This document shows positions 20,221-30,494 of a stretch of 64,000 bases of DNA, one piece after another. Source of the stretch: Candidatus Bathyarchaeia archaeon (lineage in GTDB: Archaea; Thermoproteota; Bathyarchaeia; Bathyarchaeales; Bathycorpusculaceae). Under the pieces are notes generated by a model. It searched no databases, was not told the DNA's origin, and saw only the letters and a program-made list of their open reading frames with translations. Location: contig JBEKKK010000003.1 of assembly GCA_050010755.1 (NCBI GenBank), positions 96,001 to 160,000 of the forward strand, written 5' to 3'. Made by a program: the position numbers and the translations under genes. Every line of letters begins with the position of its first letter. Position 1 is the stretch's first letter.

Positions 20221-20300
20221 ATTTTCACACGACGCGGCGCGCGCGCAATAGCAACATTTCTTCTAACCATTTTCTTTGGTGGTTGTATTGTTTCGCTCAA
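20217..20300 (-). pseudogene. Truncated 5' fragment paralogous to 21097..21684
   Basis: Reads MSETIQPPKKMVRRNVAIA versus SETKPKKMVSRSLAIT; similarity stops at ~20244 (GCGCGCGC). Confidence 0.7.
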
Positions 20301-20477
20301 TTTTGAACCTCTAGTTTGTCTTCTGTTGCTGTGCCGACAAGATTTCTGTCTTTGAGGTTTTGCGGAAAAGTTATAGCTAACTCGGTCTTTCTAGTTCCGA
20401 TTTCTAACTCAGATAGTGGTCAAACTAGCTTAAAAGGACTGATAGAAGAATCCTCTAGCCTCAGTTAATCAGAGAAG

Positions 20478-21684: not shown

Positions 21685-22032
21685 ACCATCTCTCTTTTTC
21701 TAGCCTAAACCATACGATACAAAAGGTTCTAGTCAAGCTGATTGAGGAATAGAACTATTTTCGTTGTCTAGTTGGCTTGAGGCTCGGTCCGAGCGGGGTT
21801 AAAGTAAGGCTCTAGTTAGAAGTCTCAAACCCCTTCGTCTGTTTGGGTGAGTGAAAAAGTCGAGTCGTAGTTGACCCATATTTCCCAAACTTCATCGTCA
21901 TCTTTCATCGGACCTTCTCAGCCAAATCATCGATGATTGTGAATAGTGGACCGAGAGAAGGTAGGTGCTCGTCACTCGGTCCAAGAGTCTTGAAACCTAG
22001 CGAAACACAGTAAGGTGGACGAGTGCTAGACT

Positions 22033-22458
22033 TCACGACTGTTCAACCTCTTCTTTTTTCTGGACCCATTTCTCGAAAAACTTAGGAAATGTTTTTCTCC
22101 ACTCCCGCATTTTAGGTTCTGAACCGTCCAAGTATTCCAAAGCTTTTGAGACAGCTTCAACCCGCTCTGATTTTCGCTCAAACACCCATTCTTTTTGGTC
22201 GCATTGATAGTCTTGGAATTCTGGAAAGCTGGCGTTCGGATGGTCCCTTCGATAATCGGAAAAAGTTTTGTAGAATGTTAAGTCTGTATCGATTAGCAAC
22301 AGCCCGTTTACATCTGAGGGAAAGAGCTTGGAAATAGTTTCGTTTACTGTTCTCAACATCTCGATTCTAGCCGATTCTCTTACTTCTTTTTGTTGCTCTC
22401 GGTAGTGCTGATTATACAGACGCTTTTGCTCTGCATCTTTAAACGGAAACTTTGTCAC
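22033..22458 (-). CDS. Hypothetical element protein
   Basis: 141-aa ORF, GTG start with AAGGGGT SD-like sequence. Confidence 0.7.
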   Translation of the reverse strand: MTKFPFKDAEQKRLYNQHYREQQKEVRESARIEMLRTVNETISKLFPSDVNGLLLIDTDLTFYKTFSDYRRDHPNASFPEFQDYQCDQKEWVFERKSERVEAVSKALEYLDGSEPKMREWRKTFPKFFEKWVQKKEEVEQS

Positions 22459-22613
22459 ACCCCTTAGTGAATTGTGAAGGACTGCATTGAATCACCTAAA
22501 GTTGAGTTTTAGGTTACGGATTTTTCTATCTCCTAAGAGAATAGGGTCACGACACACACCATGGTAGGGAGTAATTCGTGCCATACCGTCCTTATGCAGT
22601 CCTGTCACTGTGC

Positions 22614-22811
22614 TCAATCGCTCCCTTCCCAGATTTGCACTAAGGTTGTTTGTTCTCTCTGAGTCTTAGCCTCTTTTTCTTGTCGTTTTCGAATTCGCTC
22701 TTGTTTTCTTTCATACTTGAGACTGTGGTCGATGGAGCAAAACGGAAAATCACCCACCCATGTAACAAGAGGACGGGGTATTTTTCGTTTACAATATTTA
22801 CATTTAGGCAA
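22614..22811 (-). CDS. Small zinc-finger (TRASH-like) protein
   Basis: CKYC...FCSIDH plus basic helix; overlaps the upstream gene. Confidence 0.7.
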   Translation of the reverse strand: MPKCKYCKRKIPRPLVTWVGDFPFCSIDHSLKYERKQERIRKRQEKEAKTQREQTTLVQIWEGSD

Positions 22812-23325
22812 GAGCTTTCTTCTTCCTTTCTCGTTCGAGTTTCAAATCGGCGATTTCATTAAGTTTCTTCTGGAATTCAGCGTCTTCTTTGTCGTCCTTT
22901 TCGAGACCAGCCATAATCTTATCGTTGAAAGCTCGGTCCCGCTCTTCGATTCTCTCAAGCATTTCCAGAGTTTTTTGGTGAAGCTCATAATCTCGTGAAT
23001 CTATATCGTTGAGTCTTGCCAAAACATTATTGTGAAGCTCTTCGTTTTCCTTTTCTCGTTTCTGTAGAAAGTCAATCACGAGCTTACGCCAGTAGCCTTC
23101 GAAAGCCTCAGCATCTAGGAAAAGCTTGAATTCTTTTGCGGTAGCGTAGCGTTTTCTCACTTGATTAGCATACTCGATTCCGTGGGTTTTCTCTAAGGCT
23201 TTGCAGTAGTCGTCAACTTGCTTCTCGAAAGATACTTCTTGGTTTTGCTGTTCTTGCTGGTCGATTTCGTCCTCTGAGTTTTCTTCCTGTTCTGAATCTT
23301 CTTGGTTTTCGTTTTCTTCGTCCAT
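22804..23325 (-). CDS. Acidic coiled-coil hypothetical protein
   Basis: 173 aa, E/D/Q-rich N-terminus, AAGGTGA SD. Confidence 0.78.
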   Translation of the reverse strand: MDEENENQEDSEQEENSEDEIDQQEQQNQEVSFEKQVDDYCKALEKTHGIEYANQVRKRYATAKEFKLFLDAEAFEGYWRKLVIDFLQKREKENEELHNNVLARLNDIDSRDYELHQKTLEMLERIEERDRAFNDKIMAGLEKDDKEDAEFQKKLNEIADLKLERERKKKALA

Positions 23326-23434
23326 ACTATCACCTTTTTGTTACTATGAAATGTGAAGGCACGGCAGACTGAAAATGTCCGAAAGAGGCGTGATTTGTGC
23401 AAATAGGAGTAAGACCACCGTGCCCGTCACCGTT

Positions 23435-23758
23435 CTATTCGAAGGGTAGGGTTTTATGGGGCTGTTTTGGTTGAAGTCGTTTCTTGCCTTCTTTGATTGG
23501 GTAACTGTCGCCTTCGGTGTATTCCTCTTCGGGGTTCTGTTCCTGTTTGTTGCCATCATCTGATTTGATGTCTGTTTGAATTGTTGGGTGCTGTGACATA
23601 TCAGCGTCTTGAGTTACAGCGTTGTCTTGTGGTGTGTAAGCATCAGCCTTAACTTCGTTGAAGTAGCTGGGGTCGTTGTAGTGTTTGTCCCTCTGTTTCT
23701 TTTTTGTTTCGTCCACATTCAACGATTCTTTATTGCCCGTTTCTTGATTGTTGCTCAT
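23435..23758 (-). CDS. Hypothetical low-complexity protein
   Basis: 107-aa ORF with GGTGGTGA SD. Confidence 0.65.
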   Translation of the reverse strand: MSNNQETGNKESLNVDETKKKQRDKHYNDPSYFNEVKADAYTPQDNAVTQDADMSQHPTIQTDIKSDDGNKQEQNPEEEYTEGDSYPIKEGKKRLQPKQPHKTLPFE

Positions 23759-23777: not shown

Positions 23778-24203
23778 TCAATTTTCTATCCACGGAAGAG
23801 CAAAATCTTCTGTGAGAAACAAACAACTGGCACTTGATATTTTTTCGAATGCCTCTTTTGAGCTAATCACTTTTTCGTCTTCGGAAATTTTGATTGAGAG
23901 ACCGTCATATTTCGAGCCAATCGAAATTTGCTCGGTACAACCTTCGCCTTCTTTATCGATTCGGCATACATAGATTTTCAAGCATCTTTCTGGCGTTTGT
24001 GGTTTGTCTGGGGCAAGTTTTATCATGCGTCCCGTGTGACCTTTAAGCAGTTTCACGGTCCAATTGACATAATCGTCTTCATTCCAGCACTTGATGTTTA
24101 CAGAGGTTTCTAAGAAGATTCTGGTTCGCCTTCCGTGCGAATCGGCATTTTCACGGTAGAAAATTATCGGCACTGTGATGTTTCTTCCTTCTTTGACTAA
24201 CAT
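23778..24203 (-). CDS. Hypothetical protein
   Basis: 141-aa ORF, 1 nt from the upstream stop. Confidence 0.7.
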   Translation of the reverse strand: MLVKEGRNITVPIIFYRENADSHGRRTRIFLETSVNIKCWNEDDYVNWTVKLLKGHTGRMIKLAPDKPQTPERCLKIYVCRIDKEGEGCTEQISIGSKYDGLSIKISEDEKVISSKEAFEKISSASCLFLTEDFALPWIEN

Positions 24204-24204
24204 T

Positions 24205-24933
24205 TTAGCTTACCTTCTTCTGGCGTTCTTTCTGTCTCTGAGCTTCTGCCTCAGTTTCGAGATAGTAATTTTGACTTCTTTCCCTAGCCTTTTGTCGTTC
24301 TCGTTCGTTGCATCTGGCTAAATATCTTTGAAGCTCACTGTTAGGGTCGTTCTTTTCCGAACCCGTTAATTCAACTTGAACGGCACTTTTGCCCTCTTCT
24401 GATTTAGGATTATCACCGTTCGAACCGTAGCTGATATTTTGCCCGTTTTTCATAGCTTCAACCGTCTTACGCCATAATGCGTCCAACACCTGTTTAGCCT
24501 CAGCCTTTTCCTCTTGTGTGCCGTTTTGCTCAAGCTCACGCAAATGACTAACCATCGCCTCATGGCTTTCGAACTTCATGCTTTTCAAATCGCTGTTTTG
24601 GTTGCGTCCGAGTTGAGCGTCATTCATAGGTGCTGTGCCACTCGGTGCACCACGAGCTTCATCACGGAGCTTAACCAAGTTCGCAATAGCTGAATCCAAG
24701 TCTGCCTTTGTTGAAACATCACCTAAAGTCAAACCCAATTTCGCATAATCTTGGGCAAGACGCTGTTTTGTTTCGTCAAAGAACTTCTGAGCCTCTTCTG
24801 CACCTTCGAGACCTTTCGTCAAAAATTCGTTTTCGACTTTCTTTTGAGCTATCTCTTGAGCCATCTCTTTCATTGCGGTATCGTCTATATGCACTTCGAG
24901 CTTGTGCTTTTTCTGATTGTCTTCGGTGCTCAT
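24205..24933 (-). CDS. Helical/coiled-coil hypothetical protein (possibly scaffold-like)
   Basis: 242 aa, charged and helical; ATGA overlap with the upstream gene. Function is inference only. Confidence 0.75.
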   Translation of the reverse strand: MSTEDNQKKHKLEVHIDDTAMKEMAQEIAQKKVENEFLTKGLEGAEEAQKFFDETKQRLAQDYAKLGLTLGDVSTKADLDSAIANLVKLRDEARGAPSGTAPMNDAQLGRNQNSDLKSMKFESHEAMVSHLRELEQNGTQEEKAEAKQVLDALWRKTVEAMKNGQNISYGSNGDNPKSEEGKSAVQVELTGSEKNDPNSELQRYLARCNERERQKARERSQNYYLETEAEAQRQKERQKKVS

Positions 24934-25298
24934 GCTTTAACACCTTTCAATTCTTTTCTGAGTTTTTGAGCAAGCTCTTTGTTTCCAGCAAGCTCGGCAT
25001 CTTCGACTTTTTGAAGGTCGGAATAGTATTTTTGCGCCTCTGGCGGGAGTTGACTTAGGTTGCAAAGTCCGAGAAAACTGTTCGAGAATTTCAGATGAAT
25101 TTCTTTGTTTGGCAAATCATACTCGGTACAGAAAAGCAGTCTTTTGCCTTCGTACAGGTCGGCGAGAATCTGCTTCACATTCTTTCCGAAAATCTCGTGT
25201 AGGATTGCCGTTGAATCTATGCCCGTAGCTTGAGTCAAGATTCTGAGCGTTTCGGCGGTTTCGGTTGTAATCCACGCCGTAGTTCTGTTTTGCGTCAT
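24930..25298 (-). CDS. Putative ribbon-helix-helix regulator, first gene of the leftward operon
   Basis: N-terminal RTTAWIT strand followed by two helices; TTTATA box upstream at ~25345-25350. Confidence 0.65.
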   Translation of the reverse strand: MTQNRTTAWITTETAETLRILTQATGIDSTAILHEIFGKNVKQILADLYEGKRLLFCTEYDLPNKEIHLKFSNSFLGLCNLSQLPPEAQKYYSDLQKVEDAELAGNKELAQKLRKELKGVKA

Positions 25299-25683
25299 GA
25301 TTATCAGTCCTTTTGTCTATAATATAGCGTGCTAAGGTCAACTATATAAACTTAACGGTTCAGTTAGTGGCTTACGCCCTATCTTAGCCACTACAGGTAG
25401 CGGTTAGAAGAAAAAGAAGCTCAAAAATTAAGCTATTGATTAAACGGACCCCGAATCGAACCGTAAACCTTAAATATTTGGGTTGCTACTCTATATTGAG
25501 TAAGCACAAATCAATCTAGCACGGGGATTGTCAACTCTCTTCATGTCGTACACTTTTTTCCCGTGCTTAAAATCACTAGCCGTAGTGCCTCATTCTTTGT
25601 TCTGGACACTAGCGAACCCGTAAAGCTTATATATAAAGGTTTGCGTTTCTTCCATCATACGACATAGAAGAGAAAACGATAGA

Positions 25684-26231: not shown

Positions 26232-27281
26232 CGACTGTGCCAATACGGACCTAACAATCGTGCCAATGAACGAGCGGGAACAAGTGAAGGTTCAAAAGTA
26301 GAAGACACTATCGTACAACAACGACACTAACAGCAACTTTATCTTTTCAGTAAGAATGCTTGATTTTGCTATAGACACACCAACAGCACCACAACAGAAA
26401 GTGTTAGTCATCTACACAGCACTAAGAGGGACTTCGAGATAATACACATGGAGTCTAAGCGTTCTTGAATAGGTCGAAAATGTGGATGTTTTTCTACACT
26501 AGGTTGTTTTGGTACACTACCACCCTACCTCTAGCCCTCTATGGGGAATTTATCGGTAAAATCTGGAAATATTGGAATCGCCTAGCTGGAATGCTGGAAA
26601 AATGGCTTATGAATCTTTGATGGAATCCGAGCCAATAATGAGCCGAAAATCATTGAAAAACCGTGGAAAATGCCGTCTGGAAAAATCGGTCCGTAAAATC
26701 TAATCTGAATCGAAAGTGCGCTTATGTATTAGGTGAGGTAGGTTCTGGGGGTGGGTCTGTTTCTGGGCTGTTGACCTGTCGAACGAGTTAATCAATAGCT
26801 TAATTAACCCAGAATAGGCTCCGTATCCTATGAAAGCCGTGATTCTTGACCCGTTCGCCGTGTCCATGCCGTTTCATCGTCCGTTGCTGTTCTTCTATAT
26901 AAACCGTTCGGTCTGGGCTTAATATATGTTGCGGAAAAATTAACCAATTAGTTAAACTGCTTGGCTAATTCGTCCATCCTCAGAGCTACAATTCATATCG
27001 CAAAGTTTACGATACCAAACCACGAATTAAGCCCAAAGAATGCCGCAAAAAGCAATAAACCAGAACTATAAAGTCAAAGTTACATTAAACCCTAACCTCA
27101 AAACAAAAACAGTTAAACAGCTTCAAAGTCCATGATAACAAGCCAAAACAAACCCAAAACAGCCACAAAACCCCCCTACCACTTCAAAACTCGAAGAAAA
27201 GGACAGGATTATGGTCCGTACCTGTATGATGTAGTGGTGGGTTGGGAATCTTGGAAAATTGAGCTAAAAGAGGATTGGCTC

Positions 27282-27539
27282 TTATTCTTCTTCGTCCTCT
27301 TCTTTCTCTTCCTTCTCTTCTTTCTCTTGTATCTTAGGCTCTCGCCTATAGGTTTGAAATAAGTCGTCTGTGTAACCTAAACGAAACATAGCGTCTTTGA
27401 ATTGATGTTTCGCTCTTGAAATCTTCTTTTTTTCGCTCCAATCCTTTCGCTCTAAAATCTCGACCCCGTACCTCAATATTTGCAGAATAGTTTGGAAGTG
27501 AGGCGGTTTCATGTCTTCAATTTTTGTTTTTCTTCTCAC
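27282..27539 (-). CDS. Hypothetical 85-aa protein with acidic tail
   Basis: GTG start directly after the conserved TATA+leader motif; the track's longer ORF runs through a terminator and promoter. Confidence 0.65.
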   Translation of the reverse strand: MRRKTKIEDMKPPHFQTILQILRYGVEILERKDWSEKKKISRAKHQFKDAMFRLGYTDDLFQTYRREPKIQEKEEKEEKEEDEEE

Positions 27540-27618
27540 ATTGAACCCTCTAGTTTGTTTTCTGTTGCTGTGGAGATTTAAGGTTTTTTGATGTTGACAA
27601 ACAGGGAGAAAAAAGGGT

Positions 27619-27700: not shown

Positions 27701-28051
27701 TCACCGTCCTAACAAAACTTGTATAGGCTCTTCGTGAGGTGCTGTGTATATTGGCATTTCAAAGCACAAGTCGTTGTTTTTGCTAACCGCTTGAACGCTC
27801 TGTTTAGTCGCCGTTTTGATTTGCTTCATAATGTCCATGAATTCTTCGGTGTTGAATCCTATGTTTTCCGTGTAGATTTCCCAGATTTCAACTTTGTCTT
27901 TCTCTTCTTTGCCTTTGTCGTTGACCCAATACCCTGTAGCTTTTGGAATAATGGTTAATCCGTGAAACATTTTCACCAAAGATTTCCGTAACCGTTCTAA
28001 CACTTGAGCGTTTGGCATTTCCGTCTTGACTACAAAGATTTGTATCTTCAT
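27701..28051 (-). CDS. Hypothetical protein, DUF3574/PII-like pattern
   Basis: FHGLT...ATGYWV...E motif; translationally coupled to the integrase. Confidence 0.7.
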   Translation of the reverse strand: MKIQIFVVKTEMPNAQVLERLRKSLVKMFHGLTIIPKATGYWVNDKGKEEKDKVEIWEIYTENIGFNTEEFMDIMKQIKTATKQSVQAVSKNNDLCFEMPIYTAPHEEPIQVLLGR

Positions 28052-29058
28052 GCTCTCACCTCTACTCGTCTTCGTTCGTTGACATATTCCTCTATTACCT
28101 CTTTGTCGGTTCGTAGGTCTGGACCTGTCATTTTTGCGGATTCAAATTGGTGAGTTTCTTTCTCGATGAGCTTGCGTAATGCAGACATTACTAGGTCGAG
28201 AGCTTCTTCTATGTTGTTTACTCGACCATTTCCGTTCGTGTGTTCCAGAGGCATTGAATCGATAACCTTCTTCCACGAATCTTTGAGGTCGTTTCTGTCG
28301 AGCATGTAGGTTAGGAGAGATTTGTCAACACTCTTGAACGAGAGAATTTTCACAATCGGCTCGGACAAACCTAGATTGATTGCTTGAGAAATCCAGATTT
28401 TTCTGAAAAGATGTTGATTGAGCCGTTTCTGAAACCCAGCAACTCGGCAAGCGTTCGCAATCATTTTGTCGATTCCCCTCTGGCTAGTCGGTAGCTGAAT
28501 GTTCGCCTCTTTCAATTGTCGAAACAGAGCCTTAGTTTCTTCACTGATGTAGCATTTGCCGACTACATTCTCTTTTTGGCTGATTAAAACGAATTCTCCC
28601 GTTTCGATTTGTTCGGGCGTTATCTTCAACAAATCGCTCATTCTTGCGGGACAATCTCGACTGAGGCTCAACCACGCTTTAGCCGAAATATCGCCGAGTC
28701 TGAAAACTTTCTGAATATCGTCTAAGCTGGGTCGCCAATTCTCAACTTTAATGCCGATAGCTGGAAGCTTGTTCTTTAGGTTCAACGGTTCTTTGATGTA
28801 AGCGAAGAAGCTCTGAACGGACACAACTCTAGCCCTAGCTGAATTCTTGTTCAAGCCTTTCTCTTTCTGCAACCATTGGAAAAATTGAAGCACCTTCGTT
28901 TCGGCTTTGGGCAAGCCTCTAAGCTCTTCGGCTTTACTCATCCCTAGAAACTCTAGGAAATAGCCCATTCCCTTCTTATAATGAATCTTCGTGCTTGCCC
29001 CTAGAATCTGGCTCAACCACTCTTCTTCTAGTCCCATATCATAACTCATTTTTCCCAT
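28048..29058 (-). CDS. Tyrosine recombinase/integrase
   Basis: SAM-like N-domain, PARMSDL (R), QKE (K), HLFRK (HxxR), C-terminal Tyr (LLTY). SFK replaces the usual GH. Confidence 0.88.
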   Translation of the reverse strand: MGKMSYDMGLEEEWLSQILGASTKIHYKKGMGYFLEFLGMSKAEELRGLPKAETKVLQFFQWLQKEKGLNKNSARARVVSVQSFFAYIKEPLNLKNKLPAIGIKVENWRPSLDDIQKVFRLGDISAKAWLSLSRDCPARMSDLLKITPEQIETGEFVLISQKENVVGKCYISEETKALFRQLKEANIQLPTSQRGIDKMIANACRVAGFQKRLNQHLFRKIWISQAINLGLSEPIVKILSFKSVDKSLLTYMLDRNDLKDSWKKVIDSMPLEHTNGNGRVNNIEEALDLVMSALRKLIEKETHQFESAKMTGPDLRTDKEVIEEYVNERRRVEVRA

Positions 29059-30040: not shown

Positions 30041-30494
30041 CAACATGGAAATTTACGCTTACACATTACAAAGCAACATTACAACAGACGTAAAGAAAAA
30101 AAGGGGAGGGGGACACAGTCAACATTTGAAATCGTCCACTCCGACGGAATGTCAAACCCAGACACGAACAGAGAGAGAAGACAGACACTAAAACCATGCA
30201 AACAACATTTTCTGCCATTTTCGGAAACACGCGTCACCGCCAACATGGACACACACGTGGATCCATTACGCGTATCCATTACATCTGATGTGTGTGAAAA
30301 AAAGGGAGGGGCACCGTTCACCATCGAAATCTAACACAACCTCAGACGCAAACACGAAGAAAAAGGGCGAACTCAACTACCGCCAGGATCAAGTTTCAGC
30401 CTCTTTTCGGAACGCAGACGCGCAACATTGAAACCTTACAATGCAACATTACAAAGCAACATTACATCTGATGTAAAGAAAAAAAAGGGAGGGG
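30041..30494 (+). repeat. Degenerate ~190-bp tandem array (3 cores ending GA(C/T)GT..AAAAAAAGGGAGGG-like)
   Basis: Cores end at ~30112, ~30311 and ~30494; units share CAACAT, CATTACA, GAAATC and TTTTCGGAA submotifs. Confidence 0.85.

Follow-up and report, generated by a model that had tools for sequence, protein, structure and literature searches.

An operon in a Bathyarchaeia genome of 2.19 Mb carries three structured intergenic elements, E1, E2 and E3, and comparison with related loci suggests that they are cis-acting intercistronic RNA structures, serving in processing, stability or translational coupling, within a small, integrated and very rare virus-like element, a reading that we judge to have slightly better than an even chance. 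The elements lie in a stretch of 64,000 nucleotides (nt) of that genome (G000:C3:96001-160000; hereafter the window, to which positions refer unless a contig or another element is named), on the minus strand, which is the sense strand of the operon and of all three; the element in the window is called element A. An initial annotation had described them as one family of hairpins between the genes of an integrase element, either sites of a non-canonical cassette-shuffling system or RNA processing or stabilising elements. The second of these proposals fits the comparative data best, with the provisos that the family shrinks to E1 and E2, and that action as RNA, like its mode, is what we infer. 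The conserved structured intergenic elements themselves are real, judging from the comparative sequence evidence set out below.

Structure and kinship of the hairpins

The operon is tightly packed and runs leftward in the order RHH-like 122-amino-acid (aa) protein, 242-aa protein, 141-aa core protein, 107-aa protein, E1, 173-aa protein, 65-aa zinc-finger protein, E2, another 141-aa protein and E3 (Table 1). E1 has a GUGA/UCAC closure, followed by an unpaired C, an 11-bp stem and an interior of ~41 nt; its minus strand reads GUGA-C-GGGCACGG...CCGUGCC-U-UCAC and then AUUUCA. E2 has the same closure and unpaired C, then a stem of 10 bp, with three helices further in, and reads GUGA-C-AGGACUGCAU...AUGCAGUCCU-UCAC and then AAUUCA. 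Each of the two forms a single long hairpin when folded on the sense strand. Both contain GGCACG and UUACUCC, and the ends of both, written as DNA, are GGTGAC and TTCACA. The coordinates, closure, shared words and trailing A(A/T)TTCA that had been described for the two are exactly as in the sequence, and so is their placement right after a stop codon: E1 and E2 start 3–5 nt past the stop and end 10–20 nt ahead of ribosome-binding sites of the GGUGA or GGGG type.

We compared six elements, namely A, B and C8 from this genome, G004 from a sister Bathyarchaeia metagenome-assembled genome (MAG), and L009 and L013 from metagenome contigs. The closing module, GUGA with its unpaired C and a matching UCAC (or UCAU with a G.U pair), recurs in 8 of the 9 E1 and E2 copies, and the stem next to it starts GG(G)AC in most of them. 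E1 and E2 also share more 6-mers than expected, with 13 in element B (shuffle mean 4.5, reached by 3 of 1000 shuffles), 11 in L009 (mean 3.6, 9 of 1000) and, as a weak excess, 7 in element A (mean 3.1, 61 of 1000), while the E1 of G004 shares 8–14 6-mers with the E2 copies, as many as other E1 copies. A covariance model of E1 did not detect the E2 copies at E <= 10, and the kinship of the two rests on the closing module and the short words. From these sequence features we take E1 and E2 to be paralogous and E3 to be a different element, so that the three-member family first proposed holds for E1 and E2 and loses E3, which has a different architecture.

Some words common to E1 and E2 are specific to one element. 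A 10-mer is shared in L009 (3846-3948 and 4770-4922) and a 9-mer in B (L001 9552-9660 and 10418-10590), both missing at the corresponding positions of other elements, and 6-mer sharing between E1 and E2 is higher within than between elements in two of the three. This pattern suggests gene conversion between copies, or a common partner with which they co-evolve.

E3 had been drawn as a single hairpin closed by GTGAA/TTCAC, but its minimum-energy fold consists of two adjacent hairpins, and that closure is not retained in the two relatives. When the copies of A, B and C8 were aligned by hand, one position of hairpin 2 proved to be A-U, U-A and C-G, and 4 of its 9 stem positions carried changes on both sides. 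Short BLAST linked the B and C8 copies with each other only; the copy of element A is tied to them through position, architecture and a shared TCAAGACT word.

Several other possibilities were set aside. A loop-to-flank pseudoknot (UUACU with AGUAA) was dropped, both parts being present, by eye, in just two of six E1 copies. E1 was also rejected as coding sequence: its 24–26-codon frame gives unrelated peptides, and the conserved words fall in different frames in A, B and L009. Indels of 5, 3, 1 and 4 nt among the E2 copies argue that E2 is non-coding. Rfam 15, whose families include self-cleaving ribozymes, riboswitches and archaeal sRNAs, gave no match at gathering score in the whole window and, at E <= 10 within 21700-23600, two weak C/D-box matches, both in coding sequence outside E1, E2 and E3; ARAGORN found no tRNA genes in the window. 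Mimicry of CRISPR repeats was also considered, and no repeat array was found in the genome by a weak script that sought exact 20-mers in at least three copies.

Conservation in related elements

BLAST of E1, E2 and E3 against the genome recovered only one second locus, on the same contig. This is the paralogous element B, which is collinear with A from the RHH-like gene through the stop codon that precedes E3. When 61 related genomes were searched with the 141-aa core protein, a third, diverged copy turned up on contig C8 and another in G004, and a scan of the whole host family (332 genomes) contributed one more weak match (E 2.4e-4), for a total of 3 of 332 genomes. The metagenome scan returned seven loci, which were A, B (twice), G004, C8 and two new ones, L009 and L013. 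Among 5.8 billion proteins the core protein has 14 relatives, eight of which are further family proteins. Scans of genomic and viral contigs with the core protein gave nothing, or only the sister MAG again; of two DNA-pattern scans of viral contigs, one yielded a single hit, a chance match within coding sequence, and the other yielded none; and 50,697 phage records contained no tblastn match to the 141-aa or the 242-aa protein. The E1 covariance model found 2 copies in this genome and nothing convincing in 40 other genomes, the best E outside this genome being 0.04.

In all six elements E1 separates homologs of the same gene pair; E2 is present in three (A, B and L009) and E3 in three (A, B and C8). 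The E1 of C8 retains the long stem but not the GUGA/UCAC closure. Where A, B and L009 have E2 and the 141-aa gene, C8 has two other genes, without a hairpin, after the zinc-finger gene. The corresponding gaps of G004 fold no better than shuffles (z -1.22 and -0.23), and in L009, which is without E3, the stop codon almost abuts a convergent gene. By blastn, elements A and B are 79.9% identical over 174 nt beginning at the first base of E1, whereas the flanking 107-aa and 173-aa genes are matched by tblastx only, at 32–47% amino-acid identity, indicating that the hairpins are under stronger constraint than their neighbours. The search for related copies that the initial annotation had proposed thus yielded homologs in five further elements, with compensatory changes among them.

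Two further observations concern the relatives themselves. In L013, the most distant, the E1 spacer (1170-1400) is ~225 nt long and holds three strong hairpins, the last two with z -4.66; the E1 model favours the third. Contig C8 (L007, 19.8 kb), which holds the third diverged copy of the module, has a GC content of 0.453, compared with a genome value of 0.48. C8 and L009 have their terminal sequence in common, indicating that these assemblies break at a repeat shared between elements.

Folding, covariation and strand

On the sense strand E1 folds at -24.7 kcal/mol (z -2.83), E2 at -46.0 kcal/mol (z -4.06) and E3 at -32.4 kcal/mol (z -2.92), and 2, 0 and 2 of 200 shuffles, respectively, were as good. 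Folding energy by itself is modest evidence, and for this reason the case rests on conservation and on compensatory change in the relatives. The loose pattern of GTGA, a stem and TCAY occurs 147 times in the genome, compared with 142–175 times in random genomes of equal size.

For E2, 28 pairs are common to the single-sequence folds of the three copies; 96.4% of cells are paired and there are 6 double changes, a result reached by 1 of 500 shuffles. As a control, partners slid by 1–3 columns left 27–48% of cells paired and 0–1 compensated pairs. RNAalifold gave 35 pairs for E2, 8 of them compensated. We regard the closing stem and one inner hairpin of E2 as firm, and the remaining inner structure as uncertain. 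The closing stem of E1 comprises 15 pairs across six sequences, in an alignment fitted to the structural model, with 97.6% paired and 7 double changes (0 of 500 shuffles; slid controls 34–58%). The structures tested were derived from the same 3–6 sequences per element.

The E2 consensus folds at -31.2 kcal/mol on the sense strand (covariation term -2.76) versus -23.3 kcal/mol on the antisense strand (+1.14), and the sense strand has the better z-score in all three copies of E2 and all three of E3. On the sense strand the closing stems contain 9 G.U pairs among 134.

The operon and its surroundings

The operon belongs to a low-GC island at 20–30 kb of the window (GC content 0.41–0.43, against 0.46–0.52 elsewhere in the window). 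By comparison with the archaeal TATA consensus, the TTTATATA box upstream of its first gene is likely the operon promoter.

Table 1. Positions of the hairpins and of neighbouring features in the window.
Feature	Position	Strand	Remarks
E1 hairpin	23353..23430	-	78 nt; between 107-aa and 173-aa genes; fold, orthologs and covariation
E2 element	22474..22608	-	135 nt, multi-helix; between 65-aa zinc-finger gene and 141-aa gene
E3 hairpin 1	21986..22040	-	AGUC/GACU base and 11-bp stem; 5' arm includes UGA stop of 141-aa gene
E3 hairpin 2	21947..21983	-	GGACCGAG/CUCGGUCC stem, then CACUAUUCAC
Mini open reading frame	22472..22495	-	7 codons (MQSFTIH*), 3' arm of E2; coordinates counted by hand
Operon head, conserved	23778..25298	-	RHH-like 122-aa, 242-aa and 141-aa core genes
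141-aa core protein gene	23778-24203	-	
107-aa acidic protein gene	23435..23758	-	5' neighbour of E1; poorly conserved
173-aa coiled-coil-like protein gene	22804..23325	-	3' neighbour of E1
65-aa zinc-finger protein gene	22614..22811	-	5' neighbour of E2; weak FCS/FLZ-type matches only
141-aa protein gene	22033..22458	-	E2-E3 interval
TTTATATA box	25343..25350	-	~45 nt before first operon gene; likely operon promoter (TATA)
Tyrosine recombinase gene	28048..29058	-	336 aa; distantly Xer-like

The product of the first operon gene gives a weak RHH-like match, and in PDB the sequence of the 65-aa zinc-finger protein comes closest to an FCS finger (E 0.2). The 141-aa core protein has a confident all-beta model (pLDDT 88, pTM 0.77), for which Foldseek returned no match at E <= 0.001, the best E being 0.05 in PDB and 0.018 in BFVD; the modelled protein may represent an undescribed fold. 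Further down the same operon, G004 and L013 encode an HK97-gp10-like neck protein (Pfam 26.5 bits, cut-off 21.4; PHROG 5, 2.9e-12), indicating a relationship between the operon module and head-tailed viruses. For complete viruses the elements are too small.

Three sets of repeats were observed around the operon. A 51-nt direct repeat (20283-20333 and 27522-27572; 76% identical, with a near-identical core of ~28 nt) encloses 7.2 kb that include the operon, the integrase gene lying outside the pair, and the same repeat word occurs twice in element B, 443 bp apart (C3 17946-18010 and 18389-18431). In sequence, these repeats look like att sites of successive or tandem integrations. A repeat of ~66 nt is present three times (30046-30111, 30246-30311 and 30429-30494) at a spacing of 183–200 nt, each copy finishing with an A-run and GGGAGGGG; it has relatives beside the integrase gene of element B (C3 25719-25833) and two on contig C8, and the copies may be remnants of an integration target that was used repeatedly. 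Finally, a perfect 18-nt inverted repeat (25426-25443 and 26788-26805) surrounds a segment of 1.3 kb which carries, on the opposite strand, a small zinc-ribbon open reading frame (ORF) and a 150-aa ORF whose Cys/His pattern is HNH-like by eye. This segment may have been inserted into the element, or may be invertible within it.

Proposed role of the hairpins

E1 and E2 lie between a stop codon and the next ribosome-binding site, as processing or stabilising stem-loops would, and one strong TATA box is found upstream; from this arrangement we infer a single operon transcript. We propose that one polycistronic mRNA, leftward from the TATA box near 25345, would carry E1, E2 and E3, and that the hairpins would mark sites at which the transcript is cut or at which exonucleases stall. 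Segments on either side of a hairpin could then have different lifetimes, which would set the ratio of the proteins, and E3, the double hairpin that closes the operon at its 3' end, would protect that end. Because E1 and E2 begin so close to the stop codon, a terminating ribosome must melt the closing stem. At E2, it is conceivable that an added or alternative step takes place, in which the ribosome finishing the upstream gene melts the closing stem and exposes a hidden mini-ORF of 7–8 codons, whose stop overlaps the next ribosome-binding site, so that ribosomes would be handed to the next gene. Such a mini-ORF is present in all three E2 copies (MQSFTIH in A, MPSSQLTH in B, VPSFTIH in L009). 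Its stop codon UAA overlaps the next ribosome-binding site in each of them, in A as part of the Shine-Dalgarno-like UAAGGGG. A GGUGA word stands 5 nt ahead of the AUG in A and B, and the indels of element B (-1 and +4) preserve the frame. We regard this possible translational relay as a testable refinement of the processing or stability reading.

Several observations weigh against the proposal that the hairpins act as RNA, or against the strength of the evidence for it. The pair counts given above lean towards structure, because the sequences are few, the structures come from the same set and the E1 alignment was fitted. In a scan of the operon with sliding windows of 110 nt, the E1 window (z -2.17) ranked third of 144 sense windows, after two coding windows, and the RNAalifold topology of the inner helices of E2 differs in part from that of the single-sequence folds. 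E1 is without strand preference by z-score (sense better in one of six copies, equal in three, antisense better in two), in 6 of the 9 E1 and E2 copies the antisense strand has the lower raw minimum free energy, and the closing stems include three A.C or C.A appositions that would be G.U pairs on the other strand. The downstream ribosome-binding sites (-14 to -4) have a mean probability of being unpaired of 0.35–0.91 in the nine copies, positions for which the start coordinate is off by one or two bases in four of the nine; since the sites are mostly unpaired in the predicted ensembles, simple occlusion of the ribosome-binding site is unlikely. The mini-ORF may owe its conservation to pairing, a possible by-product, because its nucleotides are constrained by that as well. 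Lastly, none of the nine sequencing runs that contain the stretch is an RNA run, all being DNA from peat or wetland.

Alternative explanations

The cassette-shuffling proposal would make E1, E2 and E3 folded single-stranded DNA recombination sites (attC- or CTX attP-like), with the Xer-like integrase shuffling the genes between them, which we consider very unlikely. Its attraction lies in an attC-like geometry (lengths of 78 and 135 nt, a closing helix, an always-unpaired base, a variable interior and a start just after a stop codon), in the tyrosine recombinase nearby, in the equal folding of E1 on both strands, in the element-specific words shared by E1 and E2 in two of three elements, and in the differing content between hairpins, C8 having two other genes in place of the E2 and 141-aa gene of A, B and L009. 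However, attC cores are lacking, as the initial annotation had itself remarked: no RYYYAAC...GTTRRRY pair lies 40–160 nt apart on either strand of 21900-23460, and the three integrases scanned against NCBIfam matched Xer-type models only, far below cut-off, and no integron-integrase model. The window integrase scored 37.4 bits with the archaeal Xer model (cut-off 220) and 16.3 bits with Pfam Phage_integrase (cut-off 27.1). It is 59–60% identical to that of G004 and 21% identical to that of B, yet the hairpins of A and B are ~80% identical; on C8, L009 and L013 an integrase was not found within the extent of those contigs. Gene order, whose variation had been suggested as a check, is collinear wherever homologs exist among the six elements compared, and the same around E1 in every one of them, and C8 has three consecutive hairpin-free genes. 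The idea of a gene-plus-site unit is contradicted by E3, which is missing in L009 although the upstream gene is kept, and present in C8 behind a different gene. Sites of the attC type act on the strand opposite to coding-sense, whereas E2 and E3 fold better on the coding-sense strand; E1 favours neither, and the C after GUGA is unpaired in 8 of the 9 copies of E1 and E2. A closing stem of 12–18 rungs would also seem short for two recombinase-binding boxes. There is only a very slim chance, in our estimation, that E1 and E2 are single-stranded DNA sites of a non-canonical hairpin recombination, unrelated in sequence to attC, by which Xer-like archaeal integrases swap blocks of genes.

The hairpins might instead be double-stranded DNA sites for a protein of the element, serving for example as operator, replication origin or packaging signal, with the GTGAC and TCAC words as contacts and the stems as incidental inverted repeats, an explanation that we find unlikely, though not negligible. 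TCAC and GTGA words are indeed dense at E2 and E1, with 4–6 in 120 nt where the module averages about 1, copies of TCAC follow the hairpins with a period of 7 nt (TTCACAATTCAC), and the operon is headed by a weak RHH-like protein; RHH repressors such as omega bind heptad repeats. On the other hand, stem sequences vary while pairing is kept and inner helices covary, which a protein reading the duplex would not need, and arms 40–105 nt apart would be an unusual geometry for an operator. The base that follows GTGA and its partner are in no case complementary, suggesting selection for an unpaired base in a folded strand. The idea of a heptad operator was itself rejected: the only clear promoter, that before the RHH gene, has no TCAC or GTGA words. 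Also improbable is that the hairpins are separate small RNA genes, acting in trans, or the 5' leaders of internal transcripts that start at GUGAC, where they would stabilise a 5' end. A/T-rich words ~22–30 nt before the GUGAC of E1 in A, B and L009 fit this arrangement, and the hairpin would be exactly 5'-terminal. Those words, however, are weak beside the TTTATATA box and fall within codons for conserved residues, no such word precedes E2, and BLAST at word size 7 found no complementary target in the genome. Functionless palindromic insertions carried along with the element, like miniature inverted-repeat transposable elements (MITEs) or repetitive extragenic palindromes (REPs), would accord with the patchy distribution of E2 and E3, each in three of six elements. 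We think this hardly probable for hairpins that are more conserved than the flanking genes, keep their stems through compensatory changes and hold a fixed position relative to the stop codon and ribosome-binding site, and of which neither BLAST nor the E1 model found further copies in the host genome.

Significance

If the hairpins do act as RNA, a mobile element of the Bathyarchaeia, an abundant archaeal class without cultured members, would harbour a new, small family of structured intercistronic RNAs. We know of no cis-regulatory RNA of a mobile element in this class, and none was among the papers that a literature search listed. The hairpins would also offer a testable case of an archaeal virus-like element that tunes a protein ratio from one operon, and their motif, GUGA/UCAY and its unpaired C, would be defined enough to guide the search for a nuclease or binding protein. 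The reach of the finding is limited by the great rarity of the element family and by a function that is deduced. The hairpins, most likely cis-acting RNA, are new as a motif and of a known kind, that of intercistronic RNA structures.

Comparison with known systems

Among recombination sites, attP(+) of the CTX phage has inverted arms ~90 nt apart that form, in single-stranded DNA, a bulged stem for XerCD, with a full site of ~28 bp. Each phage carries one such site, unlike the several hairpins between genes found here, which have 12–18 rungs. Integron attC sites, like E1 and E2, are imperfect hairpins of variable length placed directly behind genes; they too have an unpaired base and an interior that varies, and a tyrosine recombinase is encoded nearby. 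The archaeal integrons described so far retain canonical attC folding and the IntI-specific domain (PMC9668308), whereas the operon described here has no R''/R' cores, no IntI-specific integrase and a fixed gene order. Also unlike attC, E2 folds better on the coding-sense strand, and the hairpins do not track the type of integrase.

Among intercistronic RNA structures, the mRNAs of phage T7 carry RNase III sites, which are related bulged hairpins between genes, and cutting at these leaves protective 3' hairpins. The likeness to related, bulged hairpins between the genes of a virus operon is evident, although host and enzyme differ, and we know of no archaeal enzyme for the GUGA/UCAY motif. In the cip-cel operon of Clostridium cellulolyticum, the ratios of the subunits are set by processing sites and by stem-loops between the genes (PMC4423207). 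As in the operon of element A, these stem-loops stand between operon genes, after the 3' end of one and before the next, and their stability sets the ratio of transcripts; the host is bacterial, and the stem-loops form no sequence family, whereas E1 and E2 have in common a closing module that is conserved and joining strands that are invariant, E2 forms a multi-helix junction of 135 nt, and processing is a proposed role. In a methanogenic archaeon, processing sites are reported beside ribosome-binding sites in polycistronic mRNAs, and the cut just 5' of the ribosome-binding site raises the stability and translation of the downstream gene (PMC5499594). The position is comparable to that of E1 and E2; those sites are marked by a downstream uridine and belong to host ribosomal operons, while the candidates described here are conserved hairpins of a mobile element.

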